This document shows, one piece after another, positions 3,280-5,244 of a stretch of DNA of 9,209 nucleotides. A model generated the notes under the pieces. It saw nothing but the letters and a program-made list of their open reading frames with translations. It made no database searches and had not been told where the DNA came from. The position numbers and the translations under genes are program-made. Within the stretch, counting starts at the first letter, position 1, and every line of letters starts with the position of its first letter. The stretch is from a virus (lineage: Duplodnaviria > Heunggongvirae > Uroviricota > Caudoviricetes). The DNA lies in IMG/VR virus record IMGVR_UViG_2923307698_000010; one strand, 5' to 3'.

Positions 3280-3369
3280 ACAATATGTACCTCCGGTGTA
3301 CATATTACATGATTGAAATGAACCTTCAAGATACTTGTACCTTAACGGTACAAGGGTTTTAATTTCGTT
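3280..3369. promoter_or_regulatory. Divergent operator/promoter region (oR-like) between cro-like and cI-like genes
   Basis: Two palindromes with a TGTAC core: ATATGTAC-N7-GTACATAT (3283-3305) and CTTGTACC-ttaac-GGTACAAG (3334-3354). Candidate minus-strand promoter TTGAAG(3329-3324)-16-TAATAT(3307-3302) for cro; candidate plus-strand TTGTAC(3335-3340)-17-TTTAAT(3358-3363) for cI. Confidence 0.55.
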
Positions 3370-4044
3370 ATGAAAACAATCCATGACATCCGGCGGTCTA
3401 ACGCCAGAAAACTGAGAGATGGTGTTGGAGGGAATTCTTCCTTTGCCACTATGATTGATCGCGAGCCAACCCAGACCAGCAGGTTTATGGGAGATGGTGC
3501 TACTAAAAATATCGGTGACAGCATGGCACGACACATCGAAAAATGTTTCGACCTGCCTGTCGGATGGCTCGATCAAGAACACCAGACAACGAACATCACA
3601 AAAAAACCTGATGTTTCAATCACTAATAAACAAATCACATTAGTCCCTGTCATATCATGGGTACAGGCCGGAGCATGGAAAGAAGTTGGATATTCTGAGG
3701 TTGATTTGAGCACAGCAGAAACGTATCCCTGCCCTGTACCCTGTGGGGAAATGACTTATATCTTGCGGGTGATAGGTGATTCAATGATTGATGAGTACCG
3801 CCCGGGAGACATGATTTTTGTCGATCCTGAAGTACCTGCCTGCCACGGTGACGACGTTATTGCATTGATGCACGATACAGGTGAAACCACCTTCAAAAGG
3901 TTGATAGAAGATGGGACACAGCGTTATCTCAAAGCGTTAAACCCAAACTGGCCTGAGCCTTACATTAAGATCAACGGTAATTGCTCTATAATTGGAACTG
4001 TGATTTTCTCAGGAAAACCAAGAAGATACAAAATCAAAGCCTAA
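3370..4044 (+). CDS. CI-type prophage repressor with C-terminal LexA-like S24 autopeptidase domain
   Basis: 224 aa. N-terminal HTH region, an Ala-Gly candidate cleavage site (VQAGAW), a Ser nucleophile in the GDSM motif and a downstream Lys (FKRLIEDG), as in LexA/lambda CI. Confidence 0.88.
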   Translation: MKTIHDIRRSNARKLRDGVGGNSSFATMIDREPTQTSRFMGDGATKNIGDSMARHIEKCFDLPVGWLDQEHQTTNITKKPDVSITNKQITLVPVISWVQAGAWKEVGYSEVDLSTAETYPCPVPCGEMTYILRVIGDSMIDEYRPGDMIFVDPEVPACHGDDVIALMHDTGETTFKRLIEDGTQRYLKALNPNWPEPYIKINGNCSIIGTVIFSGKPRRYKIKA

Positions 4045-4056
4045 TCAATGTTTATG

Positions 4057-4079
4057 AACCTGCTTCGGCAGGTTTTTTT
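4057..4079 (+). terminator. Rho-independent terminator after the cI-like gene
   Basis: AACCTGC-ttcg-GCAGGTT hairpin followed by T7 (4073-4079), 13 nt after the cI stop. Confidence 0.65.
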
Positions 4080-4083
4080 ATAC

Positions 4084-4117
4084 TTGACAATGTACCTATG
4101 AGATACATAATGTACCC
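4084..4117 (+). promoter_or_regulatory. pL-like sigma70 promoter with operator repeats (oL-like)
   Basis: TTGACA (4084-4089), 16-bp spacer, CATAAT (4106-4111). Overlapped by direct repeats AATGTACC (4089-4096 and 4109-4116) and the inverted repeat ATGTA-N9-TACAT (4090-4108), the same TGTAC core as the oR palindromes. Confidence 0.55.
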
Positions 4118-4196
4118 AAGAGAAACAACAAACAGGCAGGACGCCCACGAAGTAGCCGCCTGGGGCATATGAAGTCCAGGATGATTCGTTAGCAAC

Positions 4197-4258: not shown

Positions 4259-4750
4259 CTACAGATTGCCGTTAAGTTTTCTGGACAACTCCTCAATGGA
4301 TGGAGGCGATACGTAATCCGGATTTTTATTCATCAGAAACTTATTTTCACAGTGGAGGCACCTGCTTTTATGAAAAAGCTCATCTTCGCTAACCGGGAAT
4401 GGTTGAAGTATCGATACTATCTTTTGTCCAAAACATTTTGGGCAAAGATGCATGGTTATGCTGCCACCGTTCACGATTACCTCCTTCGAGTATACAAAAG
4501 TACCCGACTCAAGTTGGTTAAGGATATAGCCTTCCGTCTGAGCCTCAAAGTTTTCGAATTCTGCAATTTTAGCTTTGAGAGAAGCATTTATTTCTTGATA
4601 AGAGCCCACCAGTTCAACGAGAGACACGCATTCGCGCTGAATAGACGCAAGCTTTGAGTTCAGCTCACCAATAGCCGCATTTACTTCAGCTTGAGTTTTT
4701 GCCTCGTTCATTAGTTTTGCAATCTGGGCTGTTTCACGAATAGCCGTCAT
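4259..4750 (-). CDS. Hypothetical protein: N-terminal coiled-coil plus C-terminal CxxC…CxxC zinc ribbon; moron-like gene between cI/pL and the early-left operon
   Basis: Start taken at ATG 4750-4748 (alternative GTG at 4774 with an AAGAG ribosome-binding site). Residues upstream to 5038 are Arg-rich, low-complexity and cross the inverted repeat and GC-rich leader, so are judged non-coding. Own terminator at 4197-4218. AT-rich relative to flanks by eye. C-terminal motif CPKC…(20 aa)…CLHC. Confidence 0.6.
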   Translation of the reverse strand: MTAIRETAQIAKLMNEAKTQAEVNAAIGELNSKLASIQRECVSLVELVGSYQEINASLKAKIAEFENFEAQTEGYILNQLESGTFVYSKEVIVNGGSITMHLCPKCFGQKIVSILQPFPVSEDELFHKSRCLHCENKFLMNKNPDYVSPPSIEELSRKLNGNL

Positions 4751-4792
4751 TGCTGCCGTTAATTCAGCGATCACATTGAATACTCTTATTGT

Positions 4793-4811
4793 TGTTGGGG
4801 ATATCCAGATT
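4793..4811. repeat. Right copy of 19-bp inverted repeat (TGTTGgGGATATCCAGATT)
   Basis: Reverse complement of 4232-4250 with one mismatch. Embedded in a 13-bp direct repeat TTGTTGTTGGGGA (4789-4801 and 4822-4834). Confidence 0.6.
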
Positions 4812-5061
4812 AACCGAATCCTTGTTGTTGGGGAATAACCAGGTCCACCTCGCCTGATGTGGCTAAAAGCAGGCACATAACAGCTAAGTATTTTCAACCA
4901 GAGAGAATCCTTAGCGTTGTGGTGAATGCGGCTCAGCGCACGCGGGTTAAGGTTGAGGCTGACAGTCGACCTTCTGTGGATACCCACCCGCCTGGTGTGC
5001 AACCTTCGCCAGGCACCGGGAGGCACCCGGCACCACAAGTTTATGCTGTGTGTAGTCCTGG

Positions 5062-5107
5062 CGGTACCAGTTTGTACCCTTGCTTCCGGCTGGTACCGTC
5101 CTTTTTT
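5062..5107 (+). terminator. Intrinsic terminator in the leader upstream of yfdP
   Basis: 9-bp stem CGGTACCAG (5062-5070) / CTGGTACCG (5090-5098) with a 19-nt loop, followed by T6 (5102-5107). Confidence 0.55.
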
Positions 5108-5244
5108 GCAAAACAGAGAAGAGCATCACCGGACGACGGGCTCATAACCCAATCCATCCGGGCGGCTGCCACCGCAGGTGTTCTTCTCTGTTTTGTGGAG
5201 AAACCAACCGACCTTGCAGGGTCGATATGATGAGGAGCAGCAAA

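Follow-up and report, generated by a model that had tools for sequence, protein, structure and literature searches.

A plus-strand RNA leader ahead of yfdP in a lambdoid prophage joins a small-RNA gene to a likeness of the initiator-tRNA anticodon arm

The interval upstream of yfdP in the window (the whole 9,209-nucleotide stretch of viral DNA analyzed here) is best read as a mosaic of plus-strand RNA modules in the early-left leader of an N-less lambdoid prophage. In this reading, a small-RNA gene of the sRNA-17/STnc100 kind is followed by Domain B, a three-way-junction RNA that mimics initiator tRNA. We assign the reading as a whole a probability of about 0.5. The modules themselves are recognized directly by their folds, strand, conservation, and genomic context. 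Domain B is a well-supported structured RNA that is new to the RNA-family catalogue and to the full-text literature searched. Three separately named small RNAs, sRNA-17, STnc100/PasD, and the DicF locus, can be viewed as shuffled modules of one leader system. An initiator-tRNA anticodon arm in a phage leader bears on how temperate phages handle tRNA-targeting toxins, or on how lytic expression is coupled to translation initiation.

Organization of the leader

The early-left region of the window consists of cI (3370-4044), a pL-like promoter with operators (4084-4125), the leader, and yfdP-yfdQ-yfdR...xis-int. The cI terminator (4056-4075) immediately precedes the pL-like promoter, and the order cI, leader, yfdP is common to SfV, PhiR49_1, ST64B, mEp460, and phiNP. 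A preliminary description, made from the sequence alone, had proposed that the leader of the early-left operon is non-coding and structured. The analysis bears this out and places the RNA on the plus strand, with cI and the pL-like promoter before it and yfdP through int after it. The segment 5040-5250 (211 nt) folds with -90 kcal/mol, compared with -64.8 +/- 4.8 kcal/mol for shuffled sequences (z = -5.3). The features of the region are the following.

4084-4125, plus strand: pL-like promoter, TTGACA-16-CATAAT, scoring 11/12 in a promoter scan and overlapped by ATGTACC-type operator half-sites
4916-5107, plus strand: small-RNA gene of 192 nt, made up of Domain A and terminator T (sub-threshold Rfam match to STnc100; homology to sRNA-17)
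4916-5038, plus strand: Domain A, a multibranch RNA with closing helix GUUGUGGUG (4916-4924) / CACCACAA(G) (5030-5038)
5060-5107, plus strand: intrinsic terminator T, with an 11-bp stem (5060-5070/5090-5100), a 19-nt loop, and U6 (5102-5107)
5102-5202, plus strand: Domain B, a three-way-junction RNA (covariation, covariance model R1, predicted folds)
5129-5161, plus strand: arm 1 of Domain B, with closing helix CCGGACG/CAUCCGG and core A5136-C5154, AC-GGG-CUCAUAA-CCC-AAUC
5162-5175, plus strand: arm 2 of Domain B, a short hairpin GCGG-CUGCCA-CCGC (helix 3; two of four pairs change on both sides)
5196-5204, plus strand: invariant tail UGGAGAAAC after the outer helix (alignment of relatives)
5209-5224, plus strand: Hairpin C, CGACCU-UGCA-GGGUCG, located after Domain B and before the ribosome-binding site of yfdP
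5233-5247, plus strand: yfdP Shine-Dalgarno sequence GAGGAG (5233-5238) and ATG start at 5245 (sequence; K-12 yfdP start)

The interval contains no credible open reading frame (ORF), as had been stated from the sequence. Three overlapping ORFs in the leader interval have no Pfam matches, the indels of about 2 to 25 nt that distinguish homologues in arm 2 are not multiples of three, and the changes in the stems are compensatory. A small-ORF reading of the leader was rejected on the Pfam result and the indels. The interval from pL to yfdP is also free of N-like ORFs, none having been visible to the earlier description either. In automatic annotation, Domain B is covered by a "hypothetical protein". 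The start of yfdP, which heads the early-left operon, is most likely the ATG at 5245, and that of the upstream minus-strand gene is most likely the ATG at 4750 rather than the TTG at 5038. The N-terminal extension of this minus-strand ORF (4259-5038) was rejected as coding sequence because it reads as R/W-rich junk upstream of ATG 4750. Relatives carry other stem sequences at the position of Hairpin C, often with a UGCA or GCAG loop, such as GGCGG...CCGCC in ST64B and GCGGC...GCCGC in phiNP.

The small-RNA gene and its terminator

Judged by homology, the segment 4916-5107 is the probable SfV-type counterpart of the E. coli K1 RNA sRNA-17 and is also related, below threshold, to STnc100. In E. 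coli K1 RS218, sRNA-17 is a Northern-verified RNA of 193 nt with ends determined by RACE (PMC7719688). The mEp460-type segment from GTTGTGG to CTCTTTTT measures 194 nt, against the 193 nt mapped by RACE. The segment in the window is homologous in sequence and occupies the same locus upstream of yfdP; it shares the ends and the terminator, and its interior is divergent. An Rfam search, which the preliminary description had suggested, matched this upstream half of the leader to the STnc100 covariance model (RF02076) at 4894-5109 with 39 bits (E = 5e-7 in a 551-nt search), which misses the gathering score of 47. The match is absent from the gathering-threshold Rfam results and is seen only below threshold. 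The alignment spans model positions 1-206 and includes the closing helix UGGUG/CACCA, the hairpin CCGGG-AGGCA-CCCGG, and the terminal intrinsic terminator that characterize STnc100. Thus, the suggestion that the leader holds a small RNA stands for the upstream half, whose body at 4916-5038 had been overlooked.

Domain A contains a conserved 5' hairpin after GAAU and ends with the CCGGG-AGGCA-CCCGG hairpin. Its 9-bp closing helix is kept in seven sequence types and takes the compensatory form GUUGCGGUG/CACCGCAAC in P1. A copy of Domain A is found between dicF and dicB in the Qin prophage of K-12. The promoter scan detected no convincing sigma-70 promoter directly upstream of 4916. The GAGAAT at 4903-4908 was considered as a promoter element of the small RNA and rejected, as it reads GAGAAC in ST64B.

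Terminator T is genuine. The nine Watson-Crick pairs that had been recognized earlier (5062-5070/5090-5098) lie inside an 11-bp stem in which G5060-G5070 pairs with C5090-C5100, including one G.U pair. The hairpin is GC-rich, is recovered by RNAfold, is directly followed by TTTTTT (5102-5107), and shows compensatory change in relatives. Its position coincides with the mapped 3' end of the homologous sRNA-17 (PMC7719688). The 19-nt loop is unusually long, and a simple terminator scan missed the hairpin because its loops were limited to 8 nt. The ST64B stem differs yet remains complementary (GUCGGCGUC/GACGCCGAC), and relatives carry diverse, covarying GC-rich hairpins with a U tract at this position. 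The 5' arm of terminator T resembles DicF (UGGCGGUAcCAGUUU). The DicF model (RF00039) gives 15.7 bits (E = 1), far from its gathering score of 48 and from the 76.7 bits of genuine K-12 DicF, and terminator T is not a member of that family. No strong or convincing plus-strand intrinsic terminators are found further along the operon, in 5200-9209.

Replacement of sRNA-17 raises yfdP about 95-fold and also raises yfdR (PMC7719688). The strong induction of yfdP suggests that the mutant may simply have lost a terminator; the inserted resistance cassette could be the cause instead.

The terminator also holds the TGTACC/GGTACC motifs that the preliminary description had called operator-like. Their recurrence is real, as TGTACC...GGTAC occurs both in the terminator (5073-5096) and in OR (3336-3352). 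Their role as cI operators was rejected. The half-sites are spaced by 13 nt in the terminator versus 5 nt in OR, and the same terminator, with 96-97% identity over 5050-5250, is present in phages of unrelated immunity, such as mEp460, whose operators are of the TTGCG...CGCAA type.

Domain B and its anticodon-arm core

The outer helix of Domain B (5108-5127/5177-5196) comprises 20 bp and contains the perfect 14-bp inverted repeat reported from the sequence, CAAAACAGAGAAGA (5109-5122) and TCTTCTCTGTTTTG (5182-5195), separated by 59 nt. This is the longest perfect inverted repeat in the window with a loop of 150 nt or less, and 14 bp was reached in one of 200 first-order Markov randomizations of the window. 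The preliminary description had made the repeat's significance depend on its conservation and covariation in relatives, and the repeat is both conserved and covarying. Across 22 divergent variants, 95.1% of cells are paired, compared with 37-49% when the register is slid. Nine pairs are changed on both sides, and none of 500 shuffles attains the covariation score. Covariance model R1 scores 115 bits on the plus strand versus 37 bits on the minus strand, and the fold is specific to the plus strand. In addition, the U tract of terminator T (5102-5107) can pair with GGAGAA (5197-5202), which is predicted to extend the outer helix to about 26 bp; the U-tract/GGAGA pairing is part of the minimum-energy fold of nearly all variants.

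The 59 nt between the repeats had been taken for a spacer. They contain two arms, one of which copies the anticodon arm of initiator tRNA, and form the likely functional core of Domain B. Arm 2 is variable in sequence among relatives and may carry up to about 25 extra nt. Arm 1 carries an almost invariant GACGGGCUCAUAACCCAAUCC block. Within it, the 14 nt at 5137-5150 (CGGGCUCAUAACCC) match the E. coli tRNAfMet anticodon stem-loop at every position, the tRNA sequence being a published one (PMC8887418). Positions 5138-5150 (GGG-CUCAUAA-CCC) reproduce the three G-C pairs, the 7-nt loop, U33, the anticodon CAU, and A37. Columns 36-56 of alignment A3 are invariant apart from one loop position, an invariance that is partly circular because most homologues were gathered with the core sequence as bait, the unbiased sets being small or low in diversity. 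The closing helix of arm 1 covaries, with A-U replaced by G-C and G-C by A-U. In the set seeded with YfdP, the exact core is found at 77 of 80 loci, and 3 of 80 have a C-to-U change that keeps G.U pairing. Divergent copies retain U33-C34-A35-U36-A37 and three G-C or G.U pairs, as illustrated by the P1 loops UUCAUAU and GUCAUAU, the ST64B loop CUCAUUA, and the GZ7 stem GGG...UCC.

The likeness to tRNA is confined to this arm. ARAGORN made no calls in the window or at Domain B loci, and the tRNA family RF00005 gave no match up to E = 10, so that Domain B was rejected as a tRNA gene. Arm 1 has an AC/AAUC internal loop where a genuine anticodon stem has its two upper pairs, and this might prevent its acceptance by a tRNA-specific protein. 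Rfam searches at gathering thresholds and at E values up to 10 gave no family for Domain B in the window, for Domain B alone, for the short-stem copy of GZ7, or for the distant loci. The permissive search of Domain B loci returned only chance microRNA and hairpin-ribozyme matches. Nothing relevant to the core sequence or to phage RNAs that mimic tRNA turned up in the full-text literature searched.

Domain B is present in 2489 of 5426 complete E. coli genomes (~46%), some of which have several copies, and it is also found in Shigella serotype-converting phages, Stx2c phages, and Salmonella ST64B. PhiR49_1, the one phage genome scanned whole, has a single Domain B and none in its pR operon. Every copy among the relatives compared is preceded by a terminator or by tRNA genes, and in both the P1 ban operon and Klebsiella phage GZ7, Domain B shares its location with real phage tRNA genes. 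The downstream gene is yfdP at 82 loci, rdgC-like at 17, and yfdR-like at 7. Holins follow the copies of a short-stem class, in which the outer helix has 5-6 bp and the long helix is missing; these copies are located in Q-dependent late leaders. The distance from the end of the core to the start codon ranges from 58 to about 138 nt across loci. A genome-wide scan of 596 Gb with a 17-mer gave 73 matches, about 70 being expected by chance, and only those with an abutting helix were kept. Relatives of the arm 1 hairpin occur in prophage-like loci of distant phyla. In Saccharibacteria, a core copy lies upstream of an AspRS-like ORF.

Possible roles and known relatives

We infer the read-through logic, the cleavage by RNase III, and the partner of the mimic as follows. 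In the lysogen, terminator T would end the small-RNA transcript and keep yfdP through int silent. Strong transcription from pL would read through T, and the next 100 nt would fold as Domain B. In this fold, the 3' strand together with the GGAGAA tail would base-pair with the U tract of T and the nucleotides that follow it, forming a helix of ~26 bp, a length suited to RNase III. This helix would close the three-way junction, whose first arm would display the initiator-tRNA anticodon stem-loop with its three G-C pairs and CUCAUAA. Made only in lytic transcription, Domain B could engage a factor that recognizes the tRNAfMet anticodon arm. The most plausible partner would be a tRNAfMet-specific anticodon nuclease of the VapC/MvpT type, for which Domain B may be a decoy or a sensor. 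Processing at the long helix would release the small RNA, the mimic, and the yfdP mRNA from one another, and Hairpin C would cap the new 5' end of the mRNA. The mimic arm might function as a decoy, a sensor, or a processing signal.

An RNase III site in the long helix is plausible on the modeled fold, as RNase III substrates are near-continuous double-stranded RNAs of ~20 bp or more and the helix has 20 covarying bp, or about 26 predicted bp with the U tract. In the dicBF operon, dicF-terminated and read-through transcripts both exist and are processed by RNases III and E, and RNase III generates the 5' end of a 190-nt DicF species (PMC10448788). However, short-stem copies have no long helix, so that RNase III cleavage cannot be the universal function of Domain B. 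Shigella, Salmonella, and E. coli possess nucleases that cut the anticodon arm of tRNAfMet, and it has been proposed that phages counter such nucleases (PMC10264068). A more specific anti-defense role, with Domain B as an RNase III-released tRNAfMet anticodon-arm decoy or a cleavage-sensing switch against VapC/MvpT or an undescribed effector, is a tentative and distinctly doubtful proposal.

Alternatively, Domain B may serve only to be processed by RNase III (and/or RNase P), which would part the small RNA from the early-left mRNA, and to stabilize the 5' end, with the anticodon likeness as a partnerless relic of a phage tRNA gene. This is a minority possibility that fits a helix of 20-28 bp with the U tract included, the processing of the related dicBF leader by RNases III and E, the true tRNA genes that adjoin Domain B in GZ7 and P1, and Hairpin C at the would-be new 5' end. 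However, a relic would drift, yet conservation is highest in the 19-21-nt core, and all surrounding helices change. The short-stem copies also retain the core, although an outer helix of 5-6 bp cannot be an RNase III substrate, and neither ARAGORN nor the Rfam tRNA model detects anything tRNA-like overall.

Domain B could also be a translational operator whose mimic binds the 30S P site, IF3, or MetRS, comparable to the thrS operator and ThrRS, so that the first early-left gene would be translated in step with the state of the initiation apparatus. It is part of the first gene's 5' UTR, exactly mimics a P-site ligand, and has a GGAG motif within its invariant tail; the Saccharibacteria core copy upstream of an AspRS-like ORF would agree. 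This role is nevertheless unlikely, given that the distance from the core to the start codon varies so widely, that the downstream genes vary along with their own strong Shine-Dalgarno sequences, and that the U tract is the predicted pairing partner of the GGAG tail.

The preliminary description had considered an attenuation or antitermination structure. This is unlikely because Domain B is downstream of terminator T, is single-copy in PhiR49_1, and is followed by no strong plus-strand terminators. In its processive form, Domain B would resemble HK022 put or a nut/boxA site for host Nus factors, would render RNA polymerase that gets past T resistant to terminators beyond it, and would replace the missing N, which HK022 also lacks. 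The absence of an N-like ORF, a position just after pL equal to that of putL and nutL, and a boxA-like UGCUCUU followed by a GU-rich run in the commoner variants would suit such a role, which we consider very unlikely. HK022 has both putL and putR, two stem-loops in about 70 nt that lie ahead of the terminators they suppress (PMC9378689), whereas PhiR49_1 has one copy of Domain B and none in the pR operon, and Domain B is a three-way junction that lies behind T rather than ahead of it. On these grounds, a put RNA was rejected, and R1 had no match in the 21-29 kb stretch of HK022. A lambda-type nut site was rejected for want of an N-like ORF and because the boxA-like bases are paired and covary with their partners, reading GUUCUU in the window. 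The same covariation and the deviating window copy dispose of the boxA/boxC likeness in the 3' strand (UGCUCUU...UGUGUGG). Antitermination would moreover be redundant for the short-stem copies in Q-dependent late leaders.

A DNA-level site, be it GTACC repressor operators, an att-like or recombination core from a tRNAfMet gene, or a replication signal, is highly improbable: GTACC motifs are common to the OR and OL operators and many integrases use anticodon-loop sequences, but the half-site spacing differs, the same terminator occurs in heteroimmune phages with other operators, int and attP are 4 kb away, and G.U pairs give a strand-specific fold (115 vs 37 bits) that double-stranded DNA does not require.

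The reading of the leader as a mosaic with a tRNA-mimic module can be compared with several known systems. HK022 put and the lambda nutL/N-leader RNase III hairpin are likewise structured RNAs in a lambdoid pL leader, and lambda has its RNase III hairpin ahead of the first gene. Unlike put and nut, Domain B is a three-way junction, occurs once in PhiR49_1, lies behind a terminator, and has no conserved boxA/boxB pair. The thrS operator, the T5 tRNA-Lys that acts against PARIS, and pseudo-ToxI resemble Domain B as RNAs that copy a tRNA recognition element or act as decoys. Like the phage tRNAs proposed or shown to counter tRNA-targeting defenses, Domain B is phage-encoded, adjoins phage tRNA genes in certain genomes, and belongs to early or late lytic operons. 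However, Domain B copies the anticodon stem-loop only; it has no acceptor, D, or T arm and so cannot be charged. Neither Rfam nor the full-text literature searched describes an element that mimics initiator tRNA in the manner of Domain B.

A close relative of the leader is sRNA-17 of the mEp460-type prophage in RS218 (PMC7719688). It has the same locus between the repressor and yfdP, the closing helix GUUGUGGUG/CACCACAAC, a near-identical terminator, a length of 193 nt versus 192 nt here, and a Domain B next to it, which the sRNA-17 paper does not describe. The interior of Domain A differs, being SfV-type here, and the mapped ends, the control by ArcA, and the phenotypes belong to sRNA-17 itself. 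STnc100 (RF02076)/PasD shares UGGUGAAU...CACCGGGAGGCACCCGGCACCA, the multibranch architecture, the terminal terminator, and a prophage location, but its usual place is the late region, close to Q, stx, or lysis genes, rather than a pL leader.

DicF and dicBF of Qin share the likeness of the terminator 5' arm (UGGCGGUAyCAGUUU), an equivalent position in the operon, and a Domain A copy just after dicF in K-12. The module order in Qin is DicF then A, whereas here it is A, then T, then B, and Qin is without Domain B. The P1 ban operon leader has a pair of Domain B-like units, with loops GUCAUAU and UUCAUAU, that each abut the start of a Domain A. It also contains a region annotated as dicF-like, and three tRNA genes belong to the operon. 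In contrast to the leader described here, the P1 modules run B-A-B-A with no terminator between units and are annotated under the minus-strand ORFs plp and upl.

The leader RNA and its three-way junction

Domain B, a three-way-junction RNA, has the leader's 14-bp inverted repeat as its stem. The parts of the non-coding leader ahead of yfdP (4860-5244, plus strand) are as follows.

4916-5038, plus strand: Domain A, the small-RNA body
5060-5107, plus strand: T, the intrinsic terminator
5102-5202, plus strand: Domain B
5108-5127/5177-5196: outer helix of Domain B
5129-5161: arm 1 of Domain B
5162-5175: arm 2 of Domain B
5209-5224, plus strand: hairpin between Domain B and the ribosome-binding site, kept in phages ST64B and phiNP with other stem sequences

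Both the terminator and the repeat lie where the preliminary description placed them. The 14-nt repeat arms (5109-5122 and 5182-5195) are perfect complements 59 nt apart, and of 200 Markov randomisations, one produced a perfect inverted repeat of this length with a loop of at most 150 nt anywhere in the window. The nine Watson-Crick pairs assigned to the terminator are contained in an 11-bp stem (G5060-G5070/C5090-C5100) with one G.U pair, a 19-nt loop, and T6 at 5102-5107. Segment 5040-5250 folds 5.3 sd better than shuffles.

BLAST against phages matches 5100-5210 in E. coli and Shigella phages, and in Salmonella ST64B, Citrobacter phiNP, and Klebsiella phages at 80-85% identity. In the alignment of these relatives, the long stem changes in a compensatory way, and what had been taken for a 59-nt spacer, actually the most interesting part, contains an invariant block. 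The invariant 21-mer was scanned against IMG/VR, yielding at least 120 contigs and 81 distinct variants. Covariation was assessed in 22 representatives, each differing by more than 6%, on a structure drawn by hand (20-bp outer helix, arm 1, and arm 2). Standard pairs occupy 95.1% of cells in these 22 variants, versus 37-49% after a shift of the 3' partners by 1-3 columns. Both sides change at nine pairs (e.g., columns 17/115, C-G in 11 and G-C in 11), and the covariation score was reached by 0 of 500 shuffles. Conservation and covariation of the repeat, whose absence the preliminary description had named as evidence against a structured RNA, are both clear.

R1, a covariance model of Domain B built from this alignment, scores 115 bits on the plus strand and 37 bits on the minus strand; the fold is strand-specific because of frequent G.U pairs. 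The complete PhiR49_1 genome contains exactly one R1 copy. One central stem pair is mismatched in most variants, so the perfect 14 bp is peculiar to the window's lineage. In the predicted minimum-energy folds of nearly all variants, the terminator U tract pairs with an invariant GGAGA(A) 3' of the stem, which would lengthen the helix to about 26-28 bp and start it directly at the terminator.

A Pfam search of the ORFs overlapping the leader gave no match, and relatives of the leader carry indels that are not multiples of three. The PhiR49_1 annotation has a hypothetical protein here (XSB42937.1), a 43-aa minus-strand ORF (5041-5172) that covers the terminator and Domain B; the covariation and these indels indicate that it is a spurious call. 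By tRNA detection and Rfam comparison, Domain B is not a tRNA. It is a well-supported RNA element that matches no Rfam family and appears, as sequence or as concept, nowhere in the full-text literature searched.

Arm 1 and the spread of Domain B

Arm 1 is a 7-bp covarying helix (CCGGACG/CAUCCGG) around the core AC-GGG-CUCAUAA-CCC-AAUC (5136-5154). The three consecutive G-C pairs of this core are the hallmark of initiator tRNA. Fourteen nucleotides of the core, CGGGCUCAUAACCC, are exactly those of the E. coli tRNAfMet anticodon stem-loop, ...GUCGGGCUCAUAACCCGAAG... (comparison sequence from PMC8887418), and additionally form the same hairpin in arm 1. By our estimate, the expected number of 14-mers that the 106-nt element has in common with any E. 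coli tRNA is about 1e-3. Judged from sequence, arm 1 is a copy of the initiator-tRNA anticodon arm.

The invariance of the core is partly circular, since the core served as bait for homologues. BLAST-derived relatives retain it, ST64B differing at loop position 38 only, and loci retrieved via the YfdP protein carry the exact core in 77 of 80 cases and a pairing-neutral C to U change in 3 of 80. The core of Klebsiella phage GZ7 has a C to U change that preserves pairing as G.U. Two P1 copies found with the covariance model read GGG-UUCAUAU-CCC and GGG-GUCAUAU-CCC, retaining U33, CAU, and A37. Domain B belongs to the broad known kind of tRNA-mimicking RNA; an initiator anticodon arm in a phage operon leader appears to be undescribed.

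With very few exceptions, Domain B lies 3' of an intrinsic terminator U tract. The following gene is yfdP at 82 loci, rdgC-like at 17, and yfdR-like at 7, and the distance to the start codon is variable; thus, Domain B does not go with any single gene. Late leaders contain a short-stem class, whose outer helix has 5-6 bp. The GZ7 copy comes right after tRNA-Asn and tRNA-Arg, downstream of Q and before the lysis genes, and two others (L011 and L172) lie between a terminator and a holin-like gene. The P1 ban operon has two Domain B-like units in alternation with starts of Domain A, and three tRNA genes and an annotated dicF-like region are found there too. The P1 units (L007 2143-2257 and 2429-2625) lie between trnT and tciA on the ban-operon strand, each fused to a Domain A start. 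They underlie the oppositely oriented annotated ORFs plp and upl, whose calls may be questionable. In each unit, the closing helix of Domain A shares part of its 5' strand with the 3' strand of the Domain B helix, an overlap suggesting that the two pairings exclude each other.

Among 5426 complete E. coli genomes, 2489 have the segment at 90% identity or more, and a single genome can contain as many as five copies. In the best-matching chromosomes, the sole RefSeq annotation under it is "hypothetical protein". A looser scan with a 17-mer, covering one genome for each species, gave 73 hits, about the chance expectation, roughly half of which are enterobacterial Domain B (Citrobacter, Enterobacter, Kosakonia, Mixta, Leclercia, Erwinia, Yersinia, and others). 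In a few distant hits, long helices abut the core exactly; an identical 19-nt core, ACGGGNUCAUANCCCAAUC, lies there within unrelated helices of 9-14 bp.

Gammaproteobacterial MAG (L200): abutting helix of 14 bp; phage-like gene neighbourhood
Three Saccharibacteria MAGs (L144, L167, L191): helices of 10 bp; G.U to A-U changes among them
Acidobacteriaceae (L165): helix of 9 bp; prophage-like locus

Abutting helices of at least 9 bp occur in 0.4% of a mismatched-flank null. The Saccharibacteria core is part of a promoter-to-terminator unit that lies upstream of an AspRS-like ORF, and none of these distant loci matches Rfam. These observations suggest that the core hairpin is older and wider than the enterobacterial family.

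The early-left operon and its small RNA

The window belongs to a temperate lambda-like phage or prophage from E. coli. Positions 4700-5300 are 99.8-100% identical to several E. coli chromosomes and to PhiR49_1, and the gene order is that of SfV, PhiR49_1, ST64B, mEp460, and phiNP.

Minus strand: replication genes and cro
3280-3355: OR, built of ATGTACC half-sites
3370-4044, plus strand: cI
4056-4075: cI terminator, 3' of cI
4084-4111: strong promoter-like site TTGACA-16-CATAAT, overlapped by the same ATGTACC half-sites that compose OR
4259-4750, minus strand: gene of a variable "moron" segment, after the promoter-like site and before the non-coding stretch
Downstream of the non-coding stretch, in order: yfdP, yfdQ, yfdR, yfdS, yfdT, xis, int

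Gene order and the promoter-like site identify the non-coding stretch as the leader of the early-left (pL) operon. An N-like gene is absent from the window's phage. The 0.8-1 kb between cI and the yfdP homologue is wholly unannotated in ST64B and phiNP, and the K-12 CPS-53 remnant has lost the element, retaining only the final ~40 nt ahead of yfdP.

The upstream half of the leader is a small-RNA gene. In a permissive Rfam scan, STnc100 (RF02076) aligns end to end with 4894-5109 at 39 bits (E = 5e-7), below the curated cut-off of 47 bits, and the match terminates exactly within T. STnc100 and its relative PasD are small RNAs of prophages (bioRxiv 10.64898/2026.05.13.724894). sRNA-17, a 193-nt RNA mapped by 5'/3' RACE and Northern blot, is encoded by an mEp460-like prophage of E. 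coli K1 RS218, and its replacement raises yfdP about 95-fold and yfdR as well (PMC7719688). According to the supplementary alignment, it extends from GTTGTGGTGAATGCG... to ...CTGGTACCGCTCTTTT (PMC7719688). The equivalent segment measures 194 nt in mEp460 and 192 nt (4916-5107) in the window. Domain A is a multibranch RNA with a closing helix, GUUGUGGUG/CACCACAAC, that is retained in seven sequence types and compensatory in P1 (GUUGCGGUG/CACCGCAAC). The terminator hairpin is swapped for other complementary sequences in ST64B and many further relatives, the pattern expected of a functional terminator. The small-RNA half is a new member of already known families. The GTACC motifs of T, previously read as operator-like, are unsupported as operators: the terminator within 5050-5250 is 96-97% identical in heteroimmune phages with differing operators, and the half-site spacing is incorrect.

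Other features of this phage group were also recorded. The moron gene lies between pL and the leader. Its 163-aa product combines a coiled-coil N-terminal half with a CxxC...CxxC motif in the C-terminal part. The gene is served by a terminator of its own (4220-4201) and would be traversed antisense by pL transcription; its PhiR49_1 annotation is 79 codons too long (to 4987), reaching into Domain A. Between its start (ATG 4750) and the conserved leader, a direct repeat, (A/C)TTGTTGTTGGGGA(T/A)AT, occurs twice, 35 bp apart (4787-4803 and 4822-4838), with mosaic breakpoints among phages at 4791 and 4845. The repeat might act as a regulatory site of either the moron or the small-RNA promoter. An IS3-family insertion sequence (1-1214; overlapping transposase ORFs 1-327 and 327-1214 flanking a full-score ALIL frameshifting pseudoknot, 282-398, 119 bits) adjoins, or is inside, the replication-gene region. 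Nested inverted and direct repeats at 1728-1829 (CAGATTCTGACGGGTGAAAA / TTTTGACGGGTCAGAATCTG; GACGCATCAAATTTTGAC / GTCAGATTTTGATGCGTC), within the minus-strand replication-protein O gene (1096-2133), look like origin iterons; the yfdO remnant of K-12 contains the same GATTTTGACGGGTCAGATTTTGATGCGTC repeats. The interval from yfdQ to yfdR includes a hairpin, GCAAATGCCCC...GGGGCATTTATGG (6497-6544). In some IMG/VR contigs (e.g., L010, L020, and L029), Domain B is fused straight to this hairpin and yfdR, without yfdP-yfdQ, which marks a recombination junction. C4 antisense RNA and IsrK (P1 immI-like) are located upstream of the antirepressor gene in the pR operon of SfV, ST64B, and mEp460 (L002 3226-3414, L004 1187-1375, and L005 1323-1511). 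The window's phage has no C4/IsrK matches, and ymfL and ymfM occupy that place.

Proposed role and precedents

The established module order is small RNA, terminator, Domain B, hairpin, and first gene. According to the literature, lysogens produce the homologous small RNA as a discrete transcript that stops at this terminator, and yfdP is almost silent in them. In a lysogen, transcription entering Domain A would halt at T, yielding the small RNA and insulating yfdP through int. Upon induction, strong pL transcription might partly pass T, as in dicBF, and the read-through RNA would fold as Domain B. The ~26-bp helix would probably be a good RNase III substrate, whose cleavage would split small RNA, junction piece, and mRNA. 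The conserved anticodon-arm copy might then be presented to a factor recognising initiator tRNA. In general, the preliminary description was on target in proposing a structured RNA that acts in cis, a small RNA, or an RNase III site; its attenuation or antitermination reading is unsupported.

With modest confidence, the favoured reading of these sequence comparisons is that Domain B may act as a decoy or sensor. Nucleases cutting the tRNAfMet anticodon arm exist in these very hosts (VapC of Salmonella LT2 and MvpT of Shigella), and phage countermeasures to anticodon nucleases have been proposed (PMC10264068). The real phage tRNA genes near the GZ7 and P1 copies fit a tRNA-related role. Confidence is modest in part because an internal loop takes the place of the upper anticodon stem. 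A role as an RNA anti-defence decoy or sensor is given a probability of roughly 0.15. The less favoured alternatives are a pure processing element, with which the long helix would agree; a translational operator, against which the varying downstream gene and distance speak; put/nut-like antitermination, which the missing N-like gene would suit; and a DNA site, against which the strand-specific fold speaks.

In its 5' arm, the window's terminator is similar to DicF, although the score with the DicF model is only 15.7 bits. In K-12 Qin, a Domain A copy (STnc100, 34 bits) comes immediately after the true dicF terminator and ahead of dicB; early-left leaders thus contain Domain A and the DicF-like terminator as shuffled modules. 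This K-12 RNA (L130 2433-2642, dicF-dicB intergenic) has a 21-bp closing helix and is absent from the record's annotation. Both dicF-terminated and read-through transcripts of the dicBF operon have been seen, and they undergo processing by RNase III as well as by RNase E (PMC10448788). This operon is a helpful precedent for such a terminator being partly read through when no dedicated antiterminator is present.
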